Assembly: GCA_048621635.1 (NCBI GenBank)
Contig: JBMCWH010000004.1
Span: 1-42,987, forward strand
Direction of reading: 5' to 3'
Source: Patescibacteria group bacterium
Lineage (GTDB): Bacteria; Patescibacteriota; WWE3; JAUXAW01; JAYEID01
DNA length: 42,987 bases
The translations under genes and the position numbers were made by a program. This document shows positions 16,803 through 32,398 of the stretch, one piece after another (position 1 is the stretch's first letter; each line of letters starts with the position of its first letter). The notes under the pieces are model-generated. The model ran no database searches. It saw only the letters and a program-made list of their open reading frames with translations, and was not told the origin of the DNA.

Positions 16803-17015
16803 CTGGTAAGAGTTAAAGACAAAAAGAAAAGACTCCGAAGATGCGTGAAGTTTTTACAACTTTGTGTTTCTTTTGAATCTTTATTTTTCCTTTCTCGCTG
16901 CCCCCGAGAAATTTTTTCACTAACGTTTTTGCACAAATTGGTCCTTGTAGATTGATCAAATTTGTGGTTTGCTATTAACACTGACCAGTTTGAAAAAACT
17001 GGTTGTATTTTTGCT

Positions 17016-19124
17016 ATGCCTGTCCAACCACCAAAGAAAGTTGAAAAACGAGACGGCCGTATAGTTCCCTTCGAACGGGAAAAAATTGTTAACGCGATCT
17101 GGAAAGCTGCGCAATCTGTGGGCGGTAAGGATAAAGACCGCTCCCGTTTTATTACGGATCGTGTAATTGAAGAACTCTCCAAGAACTTCGGTTCTGATGA
17201 TATCCCCAAAGTAGAAGATATCCAAGATATTGTTGAGGAAACCTTAATCGAATATGGACATGCAAAAACTGCCAAAGCGTATATTCTTTATCGCGATCTT
17301 CACAACCGTATTCGCGATATTCGCAGTTTGGTGGATGTAAATGAGTTAATTGGTTCTTATCTTGATCAGTCTGATTGGAAGGTTAAAGAAAATGCTAATA
17401 TGGCTTTTTCTTTGCAAGGTTTAAATATTCATGTCTCTTCGGCAATGTCTTCTCGTTATTGGTTAAATAAGCTATATCCCAAGGAAGCACGGGAAGGCCA
17501 TTCGCGCGGGGATCTTCACATTCACGATTTATATTTGCTGGCTCCTTATTGTTGTGGTTGGGATTTGCAAGAACTTCTTTTGCGTGGGTTTGGCGGTGTC
17601 CGTGGGAAGATTGAATCTGCTCCTCCAAAACATTACCGGGTTGCGTTAGGGCAGTTAGTTAATTTCCTTTATACGGTGCAAGGAGAAGGTGCAGGTGCGC
17701 AAGCTGTGTCCAATTTTGATACTTATCTAGCTCCCTTTATCCATTACGATAATTTGTCTTATGAGGATGTAAAGCAGGGGATGCAGGAATTTATTTACAA
17801 CATGAATGTTCCTACCCGGGTCGGCTTCCAGACGCCATTTACAAATATTACTATGGATTTGGAAGTTCCTGAATATATGAAAGATGAACCAGCGATTATT
17901 GGTGGTGAATTGCAAGATAAAACTTATGGTGTGTTTCAGGAGGAGATGGATATGTTTAACAAAGCCTTTGCGGAAGTTATGATGGAGGGTGACGCCTCGG
18001 GACGTGTGTTTACTTTTCCTATTCCTACTTACAATATTACTTCCGATTTTGATTGGGATAAGCCAGTTTTGGATCCTGTTTGGGAAATGACGGCAAAATA
18101 CGGTATTCCTTATTTTTCCAATTTTGTTAATTCGGATATGGACCCTGAGGATGCGCGAAGTATGTGCTGCCGATTGCGTTTGGACAACAGAGAACTGCGT
18201 AAGCGGGGTGGGGGCTTGTTTGGTGCTAATCCTTTGACAGGGAGCATTGGAGTGGTGACTATTAATCTTCCGCGAATTGGTTATCTTTCTGATACACGGG
18301 AGGGATATTTTTCGCGCTTAGACGAATTGATGGAGGTGGCACGACACAGTTTGAACTTGAAGAGGCGAGTAGTGGAAAATTTCACAGAGAAAGGTTTGTA
18401 TCCTTATTCTAAAGTTTTTCTTTCTTCCGTAAAAGAGCAGTTTGGGGAGTATTGGCGAAACCACTTTAATACTATTGGGCTAGTAGGGGGGAATGAATCT
18501 ATGCTTAACTTTTTGGGTGAGGGATTTAGAAGTGAAGAAGCACGCGTATTTTTGGGTGAAGTCTTGGATCACATGCGTGAGCGGTTGGCTACTTTCCAGG
18601 CAGAGGATGACCAGATGTACAACTTAGAAGCTACGCCAGCGGAAAGCACTGCTTACCGTTTAGCTAAGAAGGATAAAGAGTTTTATAAGGATATCATTGT
18701 CGCTAATGAGGAAGAATATGCTGAACAAGGTGCTGATCCTTATTATACTAATTCTTCTCAGTTACCGGTGGGTTTTGATGGGGATGTTTTTGCTGCCTTG
18801 GATCTTCAGGATTCTTTTCAAACCCGTTATACAGGAGGGACAGTTTTTCATACTTTCCTGGGCGAGCGGATGCCCTCGGGGGAGGCAACTAAGTCATTGG
18901 TGAAGAAAATTGCGGAAAATTATCAGCTTCCTTATTACACAATTACTCCCACCTTTAGTATTTGTCCGGAGCATGGCTATATTCGGGGGGAGCATATGTT
19001 CTGCCCTGAATGTGAGAAACCTTGTGAAGTTTATTCCCGTGTAGTTGGTTATCTTCGTCCAGTCAATCAGTGGAATGCTGGTAAGCAAGCGGAATTCTCC
19101 GACCGAGAGGAATTTGCTGTTTAA
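17016..19124 (+). CDS. nrdD: Anaerobic (class III) ribonucleoside-triphosphate reductase with N-terminal ATP cone
   Basis: ATP cone VEKRDGRIVPF...AKAYILYR; HIHDL, PYCCGW, SMCCRL, Zn motif CPEH/CPEC, glycyl-radical motif RVVGYL. Confidence 0.96.
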   Translation: MPVQPPKKVEKRDGRIVPFEREKIVNAIWKAAQSVGGKDKDRSRFITDRVIEELSKNFGSDDIPKVEDIQDIVEETLIEYGHAKTAKAYILYRDLHNRIRDIRSLVDVNELIGSYLDQSDWKVKENANMAFSLQGLNIHVSSAMSSRYWLNKLYPKEAREGHSRGDLHIHDLYLLAPYCCGWDLQELLLRGFGGVRGKIESAPPKHYRVALGQLVNFLYTVQGEGAGAQAVSNFDTYLAPFIHYDNLSYEDVKQGMQEFIYNMNVPTRVGFQTPFTNITMDLEVPEYMKDEPAIIGGELQDKTYGVFQEEMDMFNKAFAEVMMEGDASGRVFTFPIPTYNITSDFDWDKPVLDPVWEMTAKYGIPYFSNFVNSDMDPEDARSMCCRLRLDNRELRKRGGGLFGANPLTGSIGVVTINLPRIGYLSDTREGYFSRLDELMEVARHSLNLKRRVVENFTEKGLYPYSKVFLSSVKEQFGEYWRNHFNTIGLVGGNESMLNFLGEGFRSEEARVFLGEVLDHMRERLATFQAEDDQMYNLEATPAESTAYRLAKKDKEFYKDIIVANEEEYAEQGADPYYTNSSQLPVGFDGDVFAALDLQDSFQTRYTGGTVFHTFLGERMPSGEATKSLVKKIAENYQLPYYTITPTFSICPEHGYIRGEHMFCPECEKPCEVYSRVVGYLRPVNQWNAGKQAEFSDREEFAV

Positions 19125-19136
19125 CAGCTTGTGAGT

Positions 19137-19880
19137 ATGTCTGTAGATATACGTGGTTTGCAAAAGACAACTCTTCTTGATTACCCCGATAAGGTTGCTT
19201 GCACAGTTTTTCTTTCTGGTTGTAACTTCCGTTGTCCTTTTTGCTATAACCGGGATCTGGTTTTGGCTCCTGAGAAGTTGCCAGAAATTTCGGAAGATTA
19301 TTTTTTTGCTTTTTTAGATAAGCGGAAAGATGTGTTGGATGCAGTAGTAGTTTGTGGAGGAGAACCTACTCTTTATCCGGAGTTACCTGGGTTTGTGAGA
19401 GCAATTAAAGATGCGGGTTTTTTGGTTAAACTTGATACTAACGGTACACGTCCGGAAAAAGTTGAATTTTTGTTAGAGGAAGGATTAGTTGATTTTGTAG
19501 GGATGGATATTAAGGCAAGACTACAGGACCAAGCTTATAGCGATGTGGTTGGTCTAGAAGACTTTGCAGAGCAGGTTGGGTTAGAAAGAATAACAAATAC
19601 TTTGGAATTGTTGATAAATTCTGATGTAGATTTTGAGCTAAGAACAACAGTGGTTCCTGGCCTGCATGATAAGGATGTTTTGTTGGCCATCGCGCGTGAC
19701 TTGAAAAAGTTCTTTTCCTCCACAGAAGTGCGGAAAATTCCCTGGGTAATTCAAAAGTTTGAACCCCGTGATTGTATTGATCCTGCTTTTAATGACCGCG
19801 AACCTTATCCACGAACAACTTTGCGGAAATTTTTAAAAGCTGTCCAAAAGATCATTCCAGAGGCAAAGCTGCGGGCGTAA
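19137..19880 (+). CDS. nrdG: Anaerobic RNR activating radical SAM protein
   Basis: LLDYP, CNFRCPFC (CxxxCxxC), GGEPT, KLDTNG, ELRTT; directly after nrdD. Confidence 0.93.
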   Translation: MSVDIRGLQKTTLLDYPDKVACTVFLSGCNFRCPFCYNRDLVLAPEKLPEISEDYFFAFLDKRKDVLDAVVVCGGEPTLYPELPGFVRAIKDAGFLVKLDTNGTRPEKVEFLLEEGLVDFVGMDIKARLQDQAYSDVVGLEDFAEQVGLERITNTLELLINSDVDFELRTTVVPGLHDKDVLLAIARDLKKFFSSTEVRKIPWVIQKFEPRDCIDPAFNDREPYPRTTLRKFLKAVQKIIPEAKLRA

Positions 19881-19917: not shown

Positions 19918-20724
19918 ATGAATTCAGTTAATTTTGTTCCTGAGACACCAGAGGAGGTCTTGACTGCTCTTTCTGAAGAAGATCTTCGCGAGCTTGCGTT
20001 TTCTTTTTCCCTTCCGGAAAGTTTGCAACAAAAAAATCCCAGCTTTTACCGTTTATACGGAGGGATGAGGAATGCTGTTGTTCTTGCTAAATTTTCTGAG
20101 CAAGAAATGTTTGTCTTAACTATTTACAAGCCTTCTCCAACAGCTGGGCAGAGGGTGCGCCGCTCTTTAGGGGTTAGTAAATTTCTTTGCAAAAAAGATT
20201 TTCTTGTCCCTTGCTTTTTAGAAACTAAGCATAATAAAGACTTTTTGGAATTAGAATTGTTAGGTGTTAAACGATATATTTCTTTTCATCGCTTTAGGGG
20301 AGGGCGGAAAATTTTTCCTTACGGACCTGAGCAGATTGTACCTGCGGGTAAATTTCTTTCTCAGTTACACAAGGCTTTGCGAGAATTTCCTAGCAAAGAG
20401 TTGCTGCGTCCGTTTCCAGAAGAAGAAATTAATGGTGATCAGGAGTTTACCGTTTTGCATATGGATTATGCACGGGGAAATATTCTTTTTGATTTGGACG
20501 GGACAGAGGTGGTGGGTGTTTTAGATTTTGAAGAGGCGACCTGGGGCCCTCCGGTTGCTGATATTGGAAAGTCATTAGCAATTTCCACTAAGGATAATAA
20601 GGACCTATCTCGTCGGGTAATGGTTGATTGCTTTTTGGACGGTTACAATAGTGGTCCTTTACTGATTGAGGATAGGAAACTAGTAAACAAATGGATAGAT
20701 CATTTTGCTCCTATGATAGTCTAG
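19918..20724 (+). CDS. APH/choline-kinase/type II homoserine kinase-like phosphotransferase
   Basis: AGKFLSQLH, Brenner motif HMDYARGN, VLDFEE, DIGKSL, FLDGY. Confidence 0.8.
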   Translation: MNSVNFVPETPEEVLTALSEEDLRELAFSFSLPESLQQKNPSFYRLYGGMRNAVVLAKFSEQEMFVLTIYKPSPTAGQRVRRSLGVSKFLCKKDFLVPCFLETKHNKDFLELELLGVKRYISFHRFRGGRKIFPYGPEQIVPAGKFLSQLHKALREFPSKELLRPFPEEEINGDQEFTVLHMDYARGNILFDLDGTEVVGVLDFEEATWGPPVADIGKSLAISTKDNKDLSRRVMVDCFLDGYNSGPLLIEDRKLVNKWIDHFAPMIV

Positions 20725-20965: not shown

Positions 20966-22111
20966 ATGTCAGCAGCTCCTGTTTTGAAACTAGAAGATGT
21001 GAAGAATATGGTTCAGTCTTTGCGGGGTAAAGGTAGCCGGATTGTTTTTACCGTGGGTGCTTATGATCTTATTCATTCGGGACAGAGTCATTTCCTTGCC
21101 GAGGCGCGTACCTGGGGTGATTGTTTAGTGGTCGGGGTAGCAAGCGACGCTTCGCGTAGGCAGCTGCGTGGCCCAGGACATCCTCTTGTTTCTGAGCAAG
21201 ATAGAGCAGAAACTCTCAGTTATTTTCGTCCTGTAGATGCAGTGACTGTGGTTGATGAGCGAGATCTTTTAGATGTTCTTTCTTTTTTGCAGCCTACTGT
21301 TTTTTACACTATTGAAGATGATTGGAAAAAAAATGTGCGATCTTCTGAAGAGGAGGAATTGGTATCCAGCTACGGAGGAAATGTGGTAAAGGCAGACAGA
21401 ATAGAGCCTTTTATTTCCAGTTCGGAGATCGTGGAAAAACTGGCGCGGTTTACGTTGTCTAAGCATTTAAACAGTTTTTTTGGTAAAGAAGTATTGAATA
21501 TTGGGAGAGAGGAACCTCCTTTTGTAGATTTAGGTGATCAGAAACCAAGGGATATTTTAAGTTATGCCTATTTGGGAGAGGTTGTTACCTGGGAGAATTT
21601 AGATAAATTGAGAAAAAAGCTAAGAAAGGAAAATAAAAGTATCAGTTTTGTAAGTGGGTCCTATGACTTAGTTCATGTTGGCCATGTTCGGTTTATTGAG
21701 AAAGCCAGTGAATGGGGAGATGTTCTTGTGGTTGGTATACCTTCTGATAAACAGATAAAGGAGTTGAAAGGTCCGCGGCGGCCAATTGTAAGTCAGCGCT
21801 CGCGGGCAGAGCTTTTGCGCTTTTTCCAACCAGTTGATTATGTAACTGTTCTTCCTGATTCTATGGTAAAAGCTTTGGATCTTTTGCACCCTGACGTTTT
21901 CCAGACTGTGGATGAGGCGTGGAACTCCGGATTTAAAGAGAGTCCGGAGTGTGCGACCGTGTGTGAGTATGGCGGAGAAATTAAGCTGGTTGAACGGCAG
22001 GCTCCTTTCGTCTCCTCGCAAAGGATGATTGAGAAAGCAGCAGGCTTGCGGGTAAGAAAAATGTTTTCTGCGTGTTTGGAAGCAGTAGGCCAAAATGAGC
22101 AAAGATCCTGA
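20966..22111 (+). CDS. Tandem two-domain cytidylyltransferase-like (RfaE domain II-like) nucleotidyltransferase
   Basis: Two repeats: GAYDLIHSGQ...GDCLVVGVASD...RGPGHP...RAE...VDAV and GSYDLVHVGH...GDVLVVGIPSD...KGPRRP...RAE...VDYV, each ending in an SS motif. Confidence 0.88.
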   Translation: MSAAPVLKLEDVKNMVQSLRGKGSRIVFTVGAYDLIHSGQSHFLAEARTWGDCLVVGVASDASRRQLRGPGHPLVSEQDRAETLSYFRPVDAVTVVDERDLLDVLSFLQPTVFYTIEDDWKKNVRSSEEEELVSSYGGNVVKADRIEPFISSSEIVEKLARFTLSKHLNSFFGKEVLNIGREEPPFVDLGDQKPRDILSYAYLGEVVTWENLDKLRKKLRKENKSISFVSGSYDLVHVGHVRFIEKASEWGDVLVVGIPSDKQIKELKGPRRPIVSQRSRAELLRFFQPVDYVTVLPDSMVKALDLLHPDVFQTVDEAWNSGFKESPECATVCEYGGEIKLVERQAPFVSSQRMIEKAAGLRVRKMFSACLEAVGQNEQRS

Positions 22112-22568
22112 TTTTTACAGTCCTGAAATACAGAAAAGTGCTCGGCAGGGTGGTTATAAATATGCGGAGATTTGGCAAAGCGTTGACAAGTGCCCGTTCT
22201 GTGATCTTAAGGAAAAGTACATTGTTACCCAAGACAATGATGTAGTTTTAACAGCGAACCTATTTCCTTATGTTGATTATCACCTTTTGATTATTCCCCG
22301 TAAGCATGTTTTGCTACTTTCTGAGTTATCAGAAAATGATTGGTTGGCAGTACGTAGACTTGCGGAGTTAGGTAGAAAGTTGCTAGAAGCTGTTACAAAT
22401 AATGATGCTTATACTTTTGTTCTTCGTGAAGGAAATAACAAAAAGAAAACAGTTCAACATCTTCATTTTCACCTGATTCCCTTCCACCCTGATTTGGAAA
22501 GTTGGCAGTATCAGAAGATAAATGTTTTGCCGCAAGAAGCTGCAGAGGAGTTTAGAGATGCTTTGTGA
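22095..22568 (+). CDS. HIT family nucleotide hydrolase
   Basis: CPFC, NLFPY, HLLIIPRKH, histidine triad HLHFHLIP. Confidence 0.9.
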   Translation: MSKDPDFYSPEIQKSARQGGYKYAEIWQSVDKCPFCDLKEKYIVTQDNDVVLTANLFPYVDYHLLIIPRKHVLLLSELSENDWLAVRRLAELGRKLLEAVTNNDAYTFVLREGNNKKKTVQHLHFHLIPFHPDLESWQYQKINVLPQEAAEEFRDAL

Positions 22569-22607
22569 CTGGCGAAAAGGAGAGCCTGTTTACTTTTGTA
22601 TTTGAAA

Positions 22608-23087
22608 ATGAACAACGCTGACAAAAATACAACAATTAAACAAAAAGATTTAAACTTAATGAAAAAAGCCTGTTTGCTTTGCGACCAGGCGACATGTATG
22701 TACAAAACAGCTTGTCTGGCTGTGAAGAATGGAAAGGTAATTGTTTCTGCCTATAATGAAACTTTGCCCGGAGAAAAATATTGCCAGGATGGTGAATGCA
22801 TCCGCAAGAAGTTGAGTTTAACTAACGGGGCAGATATTGGTAAAGTGTGTTCTATCCATGCCGAGGTAAATCTGATTGCAAAAGCAGCTGCCAGCGGTCT
22901 TTGCTTAAAGGATAGCACTATTTATGTTACTACTTTTCCCTGTTATGTTTGTTCAAAGAGTTTAGTTCAGGCCAGGATTAATTATCTTTACTATATGTCT
23001 GATTATGCTTGTAATGAGGGTGGTTGTTTTTTCAAGGCGGCAGATATTCCTATTTTCAAGATTCCTGAGGAAAAGGTATGGCAATAA
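22608..23087 (+). CDS. dCMP deaminase family (Zn-dependent cytidine/deoxycytidylate deaminase)
   Basis: HAEVN and PCYVC Zn motifs, AYN and Cys-rich CIRK segment. Confidence 0.88.
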   Translation: MNNADKNTTIKQKDLNLMKKACLLCDQATCMYKTACLAVKNGKVIVSAYNETLPGEKYCQDGECIRKKLSLTNGADIGKVCSIHAEVNLIAKAAASGLCLKDSTIYVTTFPCYVCSKSLVQARINYLYYMSDYACNEGGCFFKAADIPIFKIPEEKVWQ

Positions 23088-24523
23088 GTAATTCTATTTA
23101 CTTTAAAGAAAAATTAACTGTTGGAAATTCTGATTCTCCTGTGGCTATTTGTACTCTTTGGACACCTAAGGAGAAGCTATTAGATAGTCTTTCTTCGGAT
23201 TCTTATTTTTTTGGAGGGCAGCTTTACTCACCCCGTGGCCTAAATTTTGTTGTGCGGAATTTGCTTACTTATCCTAAGATTCAGTATCTTATCCTTTGTG
23301 GAAAAGATTTGTCTGGTGCCGGACAAGTTTTGGTCGACTTTTTTACGGGTAAAGACATTCCCGAAGGAAGCATTGATAAGGAAGTACCAAAGGAAGCTAG
23401 GGAGTTGTTGATTGAAACTGTGGAGTTGATAGATTTGCGTGGTGAAGAAGATACAGGCAAGCTAGAAGAAATGATCTCTTCGCTAGATTTATCTAAAACT
23501 TCTACAAGGGAACCAATGCGGTACCCGCAACCAGAAAGAGATAGTGAATCTTTCCCGACAGATTTTTCTGTGTTTAAAGTGCGGGATGATTTTGTTGGGG
23601 AGGTGTGGTTGTTGGCCTTGAAGAATATATTAAAATTTGGTCTTTCTATGCAGCGGATTGGTGGCCACCAGGTTTTAGCAGTGAATAATTTAGCTGCCGT
23701 TATTGAGAAGGAGGATCCGAAAGAGCCAACTATTTATCCTTTCTTCGATTTTGATCAAGAAGGTGTGCAACATTATTGGGAAAATTTTTCTGATCCTCAA
23801 TTACAGGGACATTCTTATTCGTATGGTGAACGGTTAAAAAATTATTGCGGTATCAATCAAGTGGAGATTATGAAAGAAAAATTGGCTCGCTTTCCTGCAG
23901 AGGAAGGTGCGTTAGCTGTACTGTGGAATGTGGAAGAGGACAACTTTCCTCCTGATGACGGTGGGCAAACGCCCGCTGGTAAACAGGAGGGCTGGAATGT
24001 TCCTTGTTTGGACTTAGTGCAAGCTCAATGTTTTGCTAACCAATTGTACCTGACGGCTTACTTTCGAGCTAACGATATTTTTGGAGCTTGGCCGCGAAAT
24101 GTTTTTGCGCTGCGCCGTTTACAAGGGGAGCTTGCGGAGAGTGTAGGGAAAGGTATTGGTTCTTTAGTAATTGTTTCCCAATTTGCCTGGATTAGTGAGT
24201 CAGTAGGTGCAAGGGTGGAAGAAATTCTGGACAAATATTATCAGCCGCGTTGTGTATGGGATCCAAGAGGAAACTTTCTTATCAGTGTTAAAGGGGAGCA
24301 GATTTTGGCTACTCATCTTTCTCCGCAAGGAATAGAATTGCAGAAGTTTAGTATTAATGGTAAAACCAAGAAAGCCGCGGTTAAGCTTTGTCAAGAGATT
24401 ATTGGGGAATTAGCTATATCTGACTTAAACCATGCTGCAGACTTGGGTCGGGAATTGGCTAAGGCGGAAACTGCTGTAAAGAATGGCTTGAAATATATTC
24501 AAGACCAGCCTTTAGATTTTTGA
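23078..24523 (+). CDS. Fusion: MtrA-like domain + thymidylate-synthase-like domain + DUF4346-like domain
   Basis: N-term VGNSDSPVAICTLWT...GQLYS..GLNFVVRNLL..PKIQYLILCG; middle YSYGERL, NQ, LWNV..D, PCL, YFRANDIFGAWPRN; C-term DPRGNFLI...HAADLGRELAKAE...YIQD. Confidence 0.82.
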   Translation: MAISNSIYFKEKLTVGNSDSPVAICTLWTPKEKLLDSLSSDSYFFGGQLYSPRGLNFVVRNLLTYPKIQYLILCGKDLSGAGQVLVDFFTGKDIPEGSIDKEVPKEARELLIETVELIDLRGEEDTGKLEEMISSLDLSKTSTREPMRYPQPERDSESFPTDFSVFKVRDDFVGEVWLLALKNILKFGLSMQRIGGHQVLAVNNLAAVIEKEDPKEPTIYPFFDFDQEGVQHYWENFSDPQLQGHSYSYGERLKNYCGINQVEIMKEKLARFPAEEGALAVLWNVEEDNFPPDDGGQTPAGKQEGWNVPCLDLVQAQCFANQLYLTAYFRANDIFGAWPRNVFALRRLQGELAESVGKGIGSLVIVSQFAWISESVGARVEEILDKYYQPRCVWDPRGNFLISVKGEQILATHLSPQGIELQKFSINGKTKKAAVKLCQEIIGELAISDLNHAADLGRELAKAETAVKNGLKYIQDQPLDF

Positions 24524-24601: not shown

Positions 24602-24856
24602 ATGGATAAGAAAGCGGTTTACATTTCTTTAGGTGTTTTAGCAGTAGTTGGTATTTTTCTAACTGCTGTTTTACTAAGGCGGGTTCTCCGTTTTGAACAG
24701 GAGGCTGCAAAAGTTGAACGAGAAACAGAGCTTTCTCCTGTTGTAGAGGAAGAATCTTCTCCTTCTGCTCTTTTGGGAGATGACGAGGAAGAAGCTACTC
24801 CTAGTGGTAAACAGGGAACTCCTAGCGTCCCCCAATCTACACCTAGCGGAGAGTGA
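24602..24856 (+). CDS. Small single-TM membrane protein with acidic/Ser-Pro tail
   Basis: 84 aa ORF with N-terminal hydrophobic helix and ATPS/TPS repeats; TGTTATACT upstream. Confidence 0.7.
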   Translation: MDKKAVYISLGVLAVVGIFLTAVLLRRVLRFEQEAAKVERETELSPVVEEESSPSALLGDDEEEATPSGKQGTPSVPQSTPSGE

Positions 24857-29356: not shown

Positions 29357-29872
29357 ATGGATTATGCCGTGGTTGAATTCTCCGGACAACAATTTCTTGT
29401 TACTGCCGGTGAACAATTGGAAGTAGATCGGTTATCTTTGGAAGAGGGAGAGGATTTTCTCCTCACCCCTTTGTTAGTTTCGATGGGGAAGAATTTAGTT
29501 ATGGGAATGCCGGAGGTTGAGGATGTATCTGTTAAGATGAGGGTTCTCGAACATAAGAAAGGTGAGAAGATTTCTGTTCGTCGGTTCCGTTCTAAGTCTA
29601 GATATCGGAGAAATAAGGGACACCGGCAACCTCTTTCGGTAGTAGAGGTAGAGGAGATAACAGGGGAGTTTGGCGAAGAGAGGGCGGAGGAGGTAGAAGA
29701 AGGAAGTGTTGGTGAAGAGGATGTGCTGGCGAAATTGTCTACTCGAACAAGAAATATTTTAAAAGAAGAGGGAGTTTCATTGCAGGATTTGGCTGGTATG
29801 TCTAGGGACGATCTTTTAGAAATTGAAGGTATCGGTGAATCCCGAGCAGAGGAAATTATTGGGGTTATATAA
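29357..29872 (+). CDS. rplU: 50S ribosomal protein L21 with acidic linker and C-terminal HhH/alphaCTD-like domain
   Basis: YAVVEFSGQQFLV, KGEKI, KSRYRRNKGHRQ; about 70 extra residues ending LLEIEGIGESRAEEII. Confidence 0.93.
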   Translation: MDYAVVEFSGQQFLVTAGEQLEVDRLSLEEGEDFLLTPLLVSMGKNLVMGMPEVEDVSVKMRVLEHKKGEKISVRRFRSKSRYRRNKGHRQPLSVVEVEEITGEFGEERAEEVEEGSVGEEDVLAKLSTRTRNILKEEGVSLQDLAGMSRDDLLEIEGIGESRAEEIIGVI

Positions 29873-29874
29873 AG

Positions 29875-30138
29875 ATGGCAAAATCAAAAGCAACTGGTTC
29901 AAAAGCAAGACAAAAGAAAAGACCTGCTGGGAAAAGATTAGGCCTCAAGGTGGGGGCTGGGGAGGCTGTTGGGCCAGGTGAAATTCTTGTTCGTCAACGC
30001 GGTAGCAATTTCCATGCAGGGAGGAATGTTAAACAAGGACGCGACTTTACCCTTTATTCGCTTGCTGAAGGAGTAGTGAAATTTGGTAATCTTCGTGGTG
30101 GGCGTAAGTCCCTTTCTGTAATTCCTTCTGACAATTAA
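29875..30138 (+). CDS. rpmA: 50S ribosomal protein L27
   Basis: KRLGLK, ILVRQRG, GRNV..GRDFTLY, GVVKF; follows rplU. Confidence 0.94.
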   Translation: MAKSKATGSKARQKKRPAGKRLGLKVGAGEAVGPGEILVRQRGSNFHAGRNVKQGRDFTLYSLAEGVVKFGNLRGGRKSLSVIPSDN

Positions 30139-30247
30139 TTCCTTTTCCTTCACATAAATACAATTACTTACCTGTTCCTAATTTGGATAAATTTATTTTG
30201 TAGAGAATTTGTTTATTAGCTGGGTTTAGACAGCTTGGCAGTTATTG

Positions 30248-30841
30248 TTAGTCCAGTTCGGGATATTTAGGAGTTTTTGTAATAGAAAGCTTTTCTGTTG
30301 GCCAATAGCGGATCCACGCTTTACCTATTATTTCACTACGGGAGACAAGTCCCCATTCACGCGAATCTGAGCTGCCGGATCTGTTATCTCCCATAACAAT
30401 GTAATGGTTTTGGGGGATGTTGAATTTGTGATTTTCGTTAAGAAATGTATCTCCTTCTGTTTTTGTTCCTGGGCTAAGATAGGGTTCTTGGAGAGTTACA
30501 CCCTCTGGGTGGCTAGGGTTGAATATTTTAATTTCTCCATTTTCTATCAAAATACTTTCGTTGGGGAGTCCGATTACCCTTTTAATATAATCGTACTCTG
30601 GGGCTTTGGGATATTTAAATACTACTGTCTCACCTCGTTTGGGATCACGAAAATAGTAAGTTACTTTTTCTGTTAGGAGATAGTTATTGTCGCTAAAAGA
30701 AGGTTCCATTGAGGCACCGTTTACCTGGTGAGTTTGGACTATGAATAAGTAGCCTAGAGCGAAAAGAGCAACGGCGAGGACAACCACCTCTAGTGTGTCG
30801 AGAATAAAGTTTCCAATACCGGAAAGAAGTTTTTTTAACAT
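30248..30841 (-). CDS. lepB: Signal peptidase I
   Basis: N-terminal TM, GASMEP (catalytic Ser), YIKRVIGLP (Lys), MGDNR..SSDSREWG. Confidence 0.94.
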   Translation of the reverse strand: MLKKLLSGIGNFILDTLEVVVLAVALFALGYLFIVQTHQVNGASMEPSFSDNNYLLTEKVTYYFRDPKRGETVVFKYPKAPEYDYIKRVIGLPNESILIENGEIKIFNPSHPEGVTLQEPYLSPGTKTEGDTFLNENHKFNIPQNHYIVMGDNRSGSSDSREWGLVSRSEIIGKAWIRYWPTEKLSITKTPKYPELD

Positions 30842-30933
30842 CTGTTCAATGATACCGACTGGTTAGTTGTCCTTCAAGGACTTTATTGTTAAAATATTGG
30901 TTGAACTGTAGAGTAAGGCTTAGTGTTTGTCAT

Positions 30934-31010
30934 GGTTGCGTAGCTCAGTTGGTTAGAGTGCCACATTCACATTGTGGAGGTCCCTGGTTCGAATCCAGGC
31001 GCAACCACCA
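30934..31010 (+). tRNA. tRNA-Val (CAC)
   Basis: Cloverleaf: acceptor GGTTGCG/CGCAACC, anticodon arm CCACA-TTCACAT-TGTGG, TTCGAAT T-loop, encoded CCA. Confidence 0.95.
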
Positions 31011-31138
31011 CGCTTTGTATCCTCCTTTTCTGTTTTATTATCTTGTACACGTTAGAAGGCCCACAATTCTACTGACGAGTTGCCTAAACTTCGGTGCAAG
31101 GTCATTACTTTTCTTTGCTTTATGGTAACATTGTCTCG

Positions 31139-32398
31139 ATGATAAAAAAGATTGAAATAGCAAAAAATACTCTTTACCAGATTGTTGGTAAATTCTTTAC
31201 TGCATCCTCTACTCTTTTAGTAACAATGCTGGTTACGCGAACTTTTGGCCCAGAAGGGTACGGTGATTTTATGATTATGACTACCTATCCCTCTTTTTAT
31301 TGGATCATGGTTGATTTTGGATTTAATCAAATTGCAGTGAGAAAGATGCGTAGATCTCGCCAAGAATCTGTTCACATTTTTTCCGATCTCCTGTTTCTTC
31401 GTTTTTTTCTTAGCTTGTTCTTTTTTGCAATAGCTTGGATTGTTTTGCGATTTTTGCCCTATTCTGTCGCTGTTAAACAAGGCGCGAGTGTTAACCTGCT
31501 AAGCCTTTTCTTCCTCTCTTTTTTTCAATCTGTGTGTTCTTTATTCCAGGCCCGGTTAGATTACGGTCTTCAACTTATTGCTCAGATTGTTGGCGCGCTT
31601 TCCCGTCTTATTTTGGTTGGTCTTTTTGTTTATCTTGGGTTTAGCACGTTTTACACTGTGATGGGGGTTTTGTTAAGTTACTTTTTCCAAGCTTTTGCTG
31701 GCGCGCTTTTGTCGCGGAAGTTTTTAACTTGGGCTGATTTAAAAGTAAATTTCCCTCGTGCTAAAAAGCTTTTCTTTACCGCCATACCTGTTGGTCTTGC
31801 TCTTGTTTTTAATATTTTGGACTTTAAAATAGACAGTTTGATGCTCTCTATATTGCCCTTACCTGAGGGAATGAAAAACAACGCTGCGGTAGGTTTTTAT
31901 AGTACTGCATTTAAAATTTTCGATGTCGTTTTAGCTTTACCCTTCTTTTTCGTCAGCTCAGTATATCCTGTACTTATTTCCAGGTATAAAGAAAGTAAAG
32001 AGAAGGCTAGGTTCTTGTTTTCTAAAGCTTTTCGTATATTGCTTATGCTCTCTTTGGTCTGTTTTATTTTTGGGGAGCTCTTTGCTTCTTTAATGATTAG
32101 AGTTTTGGCTGGTGGAGAGTTTACTGCTGCTGTGTTACCTTTACGGATACTGTTTATTGGTTTACCCTTGTTTTTTTCTTCTTCTCTTCTTTCGCATACA
32201 GTTATGGTTCTAGATGAACAAAAAAAGCTACCCTGGATTTATGGGTTTGCAACAGTGGTGAATGTTTTCTTGAATTTTATTTTTATTCCTCGCTATGCTT
32301 ATTTGGCTGCGGCAGTAATAACTGGAGTAACAGAACTGCTAATTTTCGTTTATCTTCTACGCTTAGTTTTCCGGAGTAAATTATTTAATAGAGGCTAA
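31139..32398 (+). CDS. Wzx-like polysaccharide flippase
   Basis: IAKNTLYQ, FGPEGYG, DFG, KIDSLML, AVGFYSTA, NFIFIPRY; many TM segments. Confidence 0.88.
   Translation: MIKKIEIAKNTLYQIVGKFFTASSTLLVTMLVTRTFGPEGYGDFMIMTTYPSFYWIMVDFGFNQIAVRKMRRSRQESVHIFSDLLFLRFFLSLFFFAIAWIVLRFLPYSVAVKQGASVNLLSLFFLSFFQSVCSLFQARLDYGLQLIAQIVGALSRLILVGLFVYLGFSTFYTVMGVLLSYFFQAFAGALLSRKFLTWADLKVNFPRAKKLFFTAIPVGLALVFNILDFKIDSLMLSILPLPEGMKNNAAVGFYSTAFKIFDVVLALPFFFVSSVYPVLISRYKESKEKARFLFSKAFRILLMLSLVCFIFGELFASLMIRVLAGGEFTAAVLPLRILFIGLPLFFSSSLLSHTVMVLDEQKKLPWIYGFATVVNVFLNFIFIPRYAYLAAAVITGVTELLIFVYLLRLVFRSKLFNRG

Follow-up and report, generated by a model that had tools for sequence, protein, structure and literature searches.

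A three-domain thymidylate synthase relative of Patescibacteria with a remodelled nucleotide pocket

Main finding

We analysed a stretch of 42,987 nucleotides (the window), positions 1-42,987 of contig JBMCWH010000004.1 in assembly GCA_048621635.1 of a Patescibacteria group bacterium (GTDB WWE3; JAUXAW01; JAYEID01), and in it one gene whose protein carries a thymidylate synthase (TS) core between an MtrA-like domain and a DUF4346 domain. The protein is probably a working enzyme that converts deoxyuridine monophosphate (dUMP) to thymidine monophosphate (dTMP) with rewired phosphate and sugar contacts, and it appears to be the only route of the cell to thymidylate. We prefer this reading because the catalytic set is intact, the changes are conserved throughout a clade, the gene is coupled to that of a deoxycytidine monophosphate (dCMP) deaminase, no other route was found, and a new Arg stands at the loop of E. 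coli R21. It is a TS relative with a natural combination of pocket changes that we did not find described in the literature.

Thymidylate synthase is among the most conserved enzymes and a classic drug target, and its dUMP ligands are treated as invariant. A whole lineage with five changed dUMP ligands, in which the enzyme is apparently still essential, is a natural experiment on rebuilding such a site. The wider question is how ultra-small bacteria and archaea make thymine when no dihydrofolate reductase (DHFR), and mostly no serine hydroxymethyltransferase (SHMT), is found in their genomes.

Pocket residues compared with E. coli ThyA

A profile of 64 aligned family members was matched to E. 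coli ThyA (K-12 record), whose residues are given below in brackets, with a prime for those of the partner subunit. The residues for catalysis and base recognition are kept, namely Y249 (Y94), C310 (C146), R330 (R166), D333 (D169) and N341 (N177), and C310, R330 and Y249 are invariant in the 64 sequences. The changed positions are E275 (S125), E276 (R126'), G277 (R127'), A331 (S167), W371 (H207), S373 (Y209) and N307 (L143), the last being polar in almost all aligned family members. According to Table 2 of PMC6005164, canonical TS places four Arg on the phosphate, a His and a Tyr on the ribose hydroxyl, and an Asn for uracil. Among the four canonical phosphate Arg (R21, R126', R127' and R166), only the equivalent of R166 is kept in place.

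A sequence-only reading of this gene had aligned it by eye and reported that the catalytic Cys and the Arg, Asp and Asn of RSCD...N are kept, that the phosphate-binding RR pair is replaced in FPAEEGAL, that the phosphate-binding Ser is Ala, and that the 3'-OH-binding HxY reads WIS. These equivalences hold, since the 64-member profile gives the same pairs; strictly, it is S-R-R that corresponds to E-E-G.

The three-domain family and the remodelled clade

The protein search gave 189 relatives of similar length. Among the best 120 of the 189 (E 1e-35 or better), nearly all are homologous over the full length and share the three Pfam domains and their order. Entries that carry a name are called 'thymidylate synthase' and come from Patescibacteria, Nanobdellota or Woesearchaeota, and relatives occur in at least 590 GTDB species genomes by a pattern scan of one genome per species. 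We aligned 64 of the 120 listed proteins, and 80 loci from the at least 590 genomes were kept for gene context. The distant half of the 64 keeps S/T-R-R, R-S-x-D and A-H-I-Y, and the second half reads D-R/K-G, the last motif having H or Q and then Y. In P0001-P0009, nine sequences at 45-60% identity to the query, the motifs are E/D/H-E-G, F-R-A-N/H-D and A-W-x-S/A/D, and the loop that precedes the catalytic Cys is longer. By motif, the remodelled type accounts for 11 of 121 proteins, two of these being partial.

The query clade shares with the rest of the family the architecture, the lack of the MtrA His and the exclusion of ThyA and ThyX. However, whereas in most three-domain members the Arg pair, or failing that a basic residue at 276, is retained along with the Ser and with His (or Gln) and Tyr, the clade has E276, G277, A331, W371 and S, A or D at 373, and it has gained R193, G195 and the loop with K302. 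Twelve positions are conserved in at least eight of the nine clade sequences and are rare elsewhere: P21, R193, G195, E276, P292, G301, K302, N312, A331, W371, E440 and E444. Position 193 is Arg in eight members and Lys in one, and is S, M, T or P in the rest of the family; K302 is present in all nine.

We computed a FastTree phylogeny of 141 sequences (the 64 plus 77 full-length proteins of the loci; three truncated loci excluded). The 11 rows of the clade form one branch with 100% local support, which is nested in a 66-row half sharing Gly at 277 (95% support); the remaining half is canonical. Another small group (P0023, L007, L009, L011 and L080) has Arg193, has lost Tyr209 and mostly His207, and keeps Lys276. 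One clade of this group and the query clade is not rejected by the approximately unbiased test on 70 rows (p 0.51), and a single origin of the gain of Arg193 with the loss of His and Tyr is possible.

The clade fits one GTDB family, in which it is present in four of five genomes (our own, G124, G125 and G126). The reading frame is intact in our own genome, G125 and G126, and the gene of G124 is split over two contig ends; in the fifth, G123 (92% complete), no copy was found with this query. In other families of this class, the D-K-G type is found. Since the changes are fixed in nine of nine aligned members at 45-60% identity, in a clade with 100% support and in four of five genomes of the family, the alignments indicate that the remodelled pocket is a trait of the clade and not decay. 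The possibility, raised in the sequence-only reading, that the substitutions are unique to this genome and reflect decay is thus ruled out, and the EEG, RAND and WIS motifs are conserved in type in all nine clade members and not family-wide.

The three-domain class is large and uncharacterised, and we found its architecture in no paper. Our literature search found nothing on the MtrA-like/TS/DUF4346 fusion, on DUF4346 or on PterinBD; in the available parts of PMC12455944 and PMC11974145, only ordinary thyA and folA are treated. As a separate observation, two three-domain TS genes adjoin on opposite strands in one genome (G016:C1:429558-431289; open reading frames (ORFs) of 485 and 481 aa).

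Domain architecture and structural comparison

The protein is small and soluble by prediction, and the AlphaFold2 model built from 64 relatives has a predicted local distance difference test (pLDDT) score of 91.5 and a predicted TM-score (pTM) of 0.85. Pfam and NCBIfam place the MtrA-like, TS and DUF4346 domains as the sequence-only reading had claimed. The Pfam MtrA match (residues 12-135) scores 22.8 bits, just below the cut-off of 25, and the PterinBD-DUF4346 match (residues 395-476) scores 63.4 bits, well above its cut-off of 29.6. Thymidylat_synt (PF00303) matches residues 231-386 with 22.9 bits in hmmscan and with 24.1 bits in the genome search, or 24.5 if neighbouring in-frame matches are added (cut-off 24.3). 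The best NCBIfam model of the core is TIGR03283 thy_syn_methano (residues 168-370, E 6.9e-29, 100.8 bits), of whose 201 positions 3-191 are covered. Like the methanogen-type TS of this model, the core is short and without the canonical insertions; compared via the family model, it differs in lying below the equivalog cut-off of 174.55, in its two flanking domains and in its altered pocket.

The family core matches the ThyA profile with an hhalign probability of 99.9, and Foldseek returned many TS chains at E 1e-12 to 1e-11, among them the E. coli R126E structure 1aiq. The protein resembles canonical ThyA (E. coli, L. casei, human; EC 2.1.1.45) in fold, in the kept residues C146, R166, D169, N177 and Y94, and in a predicted dimer through the same beta-sheet. 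It differs in lacking R126', R127', S167, H207 and Y209 and in its extra N- and C-terminal domains, and no DHFR partner was found. The ThyA of the Vibrio VAAP clade, as described in the available part of PMC6005164, has lost one of the four phosphate Arg at the same position (R127' to Gly) in an otherwise canonical enzyme, whereas the query has also lost R126' (to Glu), the Ser, the His and the Tyr. The Vibrio enzyme is active with a raised Michaelis constant, and that 2018 paper calls its single natural Arg-to-Gly change the first of its kind.

We compared folds with VIA-align against about 48,000 solved chains. Residues 160-385 are closest to the flavin-dependent dCMP monooxygenase 9iqc (Z 23.0, root-mean-square deviation (rmsd) 2.2, 207 aligned), and 9iqc/9iqu is also rank 1 in Foldseek; the Z values of MilA, bacterial ThyAs and T4 dCMP hydroxymethylase are 21.4, 17.1-18.6 and 17.3. 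The phage flavin-dependent dCMP hydroxylases (HY126 AfhB, 9iqu/9iqc; RB69 gp48) are thus the closest solved structures to the core, and they are examples of a TS fold that has departed from folate chemistry (PMC13326640, available part). This raises the reading that the protein carries out another C5 chemistry, hydroxymethylation or flavin-dependent hydroxylation, and forms no methyl group. The polar residue at the L143 position, N307, which is family-wide, would be in line with it, as E. coli L143 is said in the same available text to exclude water; so would the lack of folate enzymes found in our own genome. However, the likeness to 9iqc may simply arise from both being short forms of the fold, the identity being 13-14%, and the hydroxylase and hydroxymethylase signature given in that part of PMC13326640 (D169N, N177D and L143D/E, with L143E in the phage enzymes) is not present, the query having D333, N341 and N307. 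The protein is moreover the sole TS candidate, in a family that excludes ThyA and ThyX, so that with such a chemistry the cell would be without a source of thymine. We therefore consider this reading highly unlikely. The dCMP and CMP hydroxymethylases (T4 gp42, MilA) match in fold, but their Asp at the N177 position, which gives specificity for cytosine, is not present here, N341 standing in that place.

The N-terminal domain is MtrA-like, as had been claimed: residues 3-144 match the cobalamin-bound cytoplasmic methanogen MtrA homologue 5laa_B with Z 17.2, rmsd 2.3 A, 138 aligned residues and 24% identity. The cobamide-ligating His is missing as well, since His84-Ile85 of 5laa stands opposite a two-residue gap, and no His was seen at the MtrA ligand motif in the sampled rows of the three-domain family. 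His84 of MtrA is the lower axial cobalt ligand, according to the available part of PMC4915002. Unlike the MtrA homologues, the query lacks this residue, scores under the Pfam cut-off and has the domain fused to a TS. The DUF4346 domain folded alone has a pLDDT of 90.6 and its best Z is 6.4, to PSRP-3-like ribosomal proteins (6.5 in the search with the whole model). This is too low to indicate more than a shared arrangement, and no clear solved structural relative of DUF4346 was seen; a sequence search of solved structures gave one chance-level match, to L20. We also rejected a bifunctional DHFR-TS, since the protein has no DHFR domain (PF00186) and DHFR-TS chains align through their TS part only (TM 0.32-0.34, rmsd about 21 A).

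Candidate compensation, predicted dimer and mechanism

When the family core is matched to a ThyA profile of E. coli and 18 Patescibacteria ThyAs, the N-terminal helix aligns without gaps and R193 falls one residue before R21, the loop reading R-I-G-G in the clade and R-T-G-T-G in E. coli ThyA. The homodimer prediction scores 0.90 with the best control at 0.00; among proteins whose solved structures are pairs, 20 of 30 attain this level, and among those solved as single chains, one of 23. Solved ThyA dimers exist, and likeness to them may be all that the result reflects. The runs agree in at least 89% of contacts, with a partner pLDDT of 85, and the confident cross-subunit contacts involve residues 191-194, 274-277 and 330-331, the TS beta-sheet and the DUF4346 helices. 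These modelled contacts have the geometry expected if the R193 loop and R330 face the partner loop E275-G277, as R21 and R166 face R126'/R127' in ThyA. The sequence-only reading had considered that other residues might fill the phosphate site; for an Arg, this is borne out in part, the position of R193 near R21 in the alignment being suggestive.

In the mechanism that we propose, the protein would be a homodimer of the ThyA superfamily in which C310 attacks C6 of dUMP and dTMP is made, the dUMP being supplied by the dCMP deaminase encoded just upstream. The rewiring may have begun with R127' to Gly, which is common to half of the family, and continued with the gain of the Arg in the R21 loop (R193) and the loss of the 3'-OH His/Tyr pair. 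R126' to Glu, S167 to Ala and the longer loop with the conserved Lys K302 would have come last. In this scheme R193, R330 and perhaps K302 would hold the phosphate, mainly in cis, in place of the partner subunit.

Thymidylate and folate genes

Our own genome (630,712 bases, 34 contigs) is 89.5% complete. Its only PF00303 gene is the one described here, and no ThyX and no thymidine kinase were found in it. The PF00303 genes of the sister genomes G121 and G122 are likewise the three-domain gene only, with no ThyX found; a thymidine kinase occurs in one of these two (G121), that is, in one of three clade genomes overall.

We then sampled 121 Patescibacteria genomes that are at least 80% complete, with canonical ThyA called at E 1e-44 or better; all counts are across related, non-independent genomes. 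ThyA was found in 55, ThyX in 38, the three-domain enzyme in 12 and a stand-alone short TS in one, with none in 15. No genome has two TS types, so the three-domain enzyme excludes ThyA and ThyX. DHFR accompanies ThyA in 55 of 55 genomes, ThyX in seven of 38 and the three-domain enzyme in one of 12, and SHMT in 53 of 55, 31 of 38 and three of 12, respectively. The 12 three-domain genomes span nine families, and in families f21, f25 and f27 a three-domain genome without DHFR has a ThyA or ThyX sibling with DHFR. The three-domain family shows a genuine pattern of independence from DHFR and, in most genomes, from SHMT. The earlier suggestion that the flanking domains stand in place of DHFR holds as this phyletic pattern only.

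The three-domain class, widespread among Patescibacteria and DPANN archaea, would in some of these lineages stand in for both ThyA and ThyX, and it may work without DHFR or SHMT in most host genomes. A wider hypothesis, tentative and in our judgement rather doubtful, is that these enzymes form a third thymidylate route that is independent of the folate cycle. Without SHMT or DHFR, carbon and reducing power would come through a cofactor handled by the MtrA-like and DUF4346 domains, and the dUMP cradle would have been rebuilt by exchanging the trans Arg pair for the cis R193, which would bypass the near-lethal R126E.

The stand-alone short TS is a 312-aa protein with the Arg pair kept (G079:C2:8357-8788; L104:1498-2433), in a genome with SHMT and with no DUF4346 and no DHFR match. 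A search with the TS core for shorter stand-alone relatives gave one partial protein only. Three side observations concern this sample. The sole DHFR match among the three-domain genomes (G001:C3:67236-67580) is weak and partial (31 bits, positions 2-106 of 159) and is separated from the TS gene by about 2.6 kb. In G004, G020, G026, G060 and G065, canonical ThyA has a similar partial DHFR-like ORF (about 180 aa) beside it. Most ThyX genes are single ORFs of about 460-790 aa with two tandem Thy1 domains (e.g. G013:C11:53574-54875, G062:C1:331399-332754 and G086:C8:22485-23834).

Evidence against a working enzyme

Several observations weigh against a working dUMP-to-dTMP enzyme. Five residues listed as invariant dUMP ligands are changed together, and the title of a study of E. 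coli TS R126E calls that enzyme 'marginally active' (Strop et al. 1997, cited in the available part of PMC6005164). The PF00303 score of our own protein is 24 bits, compared with 47-76 bits for the other eleven three-domain enzymes. The compensating role of R193 and K302 is one that we infer from the sequence and the list of interface contacts, and K302 lies outside the listed dimer interface. A folate-type reaction would be without a visible donor, because no enzyme that could make methylene-tetrahydrofolate was found in our own genome: SHMT, FTHFS and GCV_T gave no match, and FolD only a sub-threshold one of 19.9 bits with an internal stop. DHFR and formyltransferase (Fmt) were likewise not found. 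As this genome is 89.5% complete, its absences count as 'not found' only.

Part of this evidence would suit a crippled or non-catalytic relic that is kept for binding or regulation, with thymidine nucleotides taken from a host. The protein has the lowest PF00303 score in the family, the title on R126E points the same way, and this query found no copy in G123, which belongs to the same GTDB family. The available part of a bioRxiv preprint suggests that bacteria of the candidate phyla radiation (CPR) are host-dependent for nucleotides. However, the equivalents of the catalytic Cys, R166, D169, N177 and Y94 are invariant, and the clade-specific residues are conserved over 45-60% identity. The frame is intact in our own genome, G125 and G126 (G124 having its two contig-end pieces), the translational coupling to the deaminase is kept, and thymidine kinase was not found in two of three genomes. 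A relic is, on this evidence, very improbable, and we retain the working enzyme as the preferred reading.

Gene neighbourhood

The features discussed are listed in Table 1. The window holds a cell-wall and division cluster (Mur ligases, MraY, FtsW, MurG, FtsA and FtsZ), followed by nrdD and nrdG, and the genes from nrdD to the TS gene lie on one strand in the order nrdD, nrdG, kinase, nucleotidyltransferase, HIT, deaminase, TS. The deaminase gene and the start of the TS gene overlap by 10 nt, with a GGAAAAGG stretch ahead of the TS start codon, and the TS gene is translationally coupled to the ComEB-type dCMP deaminase.

Table 1 Features of the window. Column Position denotes coordinates in the window. 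Column Remark denotes the basis of the assignment or its context; E. coli ThyA residues are in brackets.
Feature	Position	Strand	Remark
Anaerobic ribonucleotide reductase NrdD	16962-19124	+	deoxynucleotide context
NrdG activase	19131-19880	+	deoxynucleotide context
APH-fold kinase	19918-20724	+	upstream of deaminase
Tandem RfaE-domain-II-like nucleotidyltransferase	20966-22111	+	upstream of deaminase
HIT protein	22095-22568	+	upstream of deaminase
ComEB-type dCMP deaminase gene	22596..23087	+	shares its final 10 nt with the TS gene
Whole ORF, MtrA-like/TS/DUF4346 protein	23078..24523	+	481 aa plus stop; Pfam, NCBIfam, AlphaFold2
MtrA-like Rossmann-type domain, residues 3-144	23084..23509	+	VIA-align to 5laa_B; MtrA His84 faces a two-residue gap
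Short archaeal-type thymidylate synthase core, residues 160-390	23555..24247	+	TIGR03283, Foldseek, VIA-align, hhalign
R193-I194-G195	23654..23662	+	Arg and Gly conserved in this clade only; R193 one residue before E. coli R21 of the phosphate loop
E275-E276-G277 (S125-R126'-R127')	23900..23908	+	position of the partner-subunit phosphate Arg pair; profile alignment
Loop N289-W306 before the catalytic Cys	23942..23995	+	elongated in the clade; holds clade-specific P292, G301 and K302
C310 (C146), catalytic nucleophile	24005..24007	+	invariant in the family
R330 (R166), A331 (S167), D333 (D169), N341 (N177, uracil-specifying)	24065..24100	+	profile alignment
W371-I372-S373 (H207-x-Y209, 3'-OH ligands of dUMP)	24188..24196	+	profile alignment
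DUF4346 (Pfam PterinBD-DUF4346) domain	24260..24505	+	three strands and two helices; the helices are a large share of the predicted dimer interface

Within 6 kb of the TS gene, the 80 related loci have the deaminase in 45, HIT in 21, the tandem nucleotidyltransferase in 20 and the kinase in seven, usually in the same order, and nucleotidyltransferase and HIT form a single ORF in five. The order kinase-nucleotidyltransferase-HIT before the deaminase and TS recurs across several CPR lineages (L002, L004-L007, L009, L011, L017, L019, L060, L080 and others), and within the 80 loci this module stands only beside members of the Gly-277 half, a pattern that we do not connect with the pocket change. 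In one relative (P0117) a dCTP deaminase domain is fused at the C-terminus; used as a query, this domain gave no match in our own genome. Residues 86-138 of the window deaminase also match an anti-phage dCTP deaminase model (NCBIfam). In a comparison of deaminases of the query clade with the others, the zinc motifs are kept, and the alignment gave no reliable read-out of phosphate residues.

These neighbours bear on the reading that the substrate is a uracil compound other than free dUMP. It could be deoxyuridine, followed by the kinase; dUDP or dUTP, through a metal on E275/E276; or a 5'-derivatised dUMP, through the neighbouring nucleotidyltransferase and HIT protein. Anaerobic ribonucleotide reductase yields triphosphates, and the reductase here would supply them. 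No trimeric dUTPase was found in our own genome or six relatives, and the thymidylate kinase match in our own genome is weak. The joint loss of R126', R127', S167, H207 and Y209, with two acidic residues at the former phosphate-ligand site, would also fit, as would the kinase, tandem nucleotidyltransferase and HIT genes directly upstream, the thymidine kinase that joins the cluster in G121, and the dCTP deaminase match of the window deaminase. However, R330 is kept and an Arg is gained at the R21 loop, which speaks for a phosphate that is still bound. The same upstream module adjoins family members with a basic residue 276 and the His/Tyr pair and is not specific to the remodelled pocket, and thymidine kinase is present in only one of three clade genomes. 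We regard a changed substrate as unlikely. The sequence-only reading had suggested that free dUMP may not be the substrate; we see no support for this, in view of the coupling to a dCMP deaminase, the sole TS homologue found in our own and two sister genomes, and the Arg gained next to R21; dUMP remains the substrate that we favour.

The remaining observations concern the surroundings of the cluster. In the sister genome G121, a thymidine kinase (G121:C2:9105-9650; L002 about 1780-2325) lies directly upstream of the same kinase-nucleotidyltransferase-HIT-deaminase-TS cluster, a place held in the window by nrdD and nrdG. Just 3' of the TS gene, an 84-aa ORF (24602-24856, + strand) is hydrophobic at its start, matches no family and lacks a counterpart in the 80 related loci. 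In a 171-aa ORF (29357-29872, + strand), ribosomal protein L21 (residues 3-101) is followed by a match to the RNA polymerase alpha C-terminal domain (residues 127-168, E 3.4e-6). In positions 1-40000 of the window nearly all long ORFs are on the + strand, and the GC skew there is 0.14-0.31 per 2 kb, except for 0.06 at 30001-32000, becoming negative only past 40 kb.

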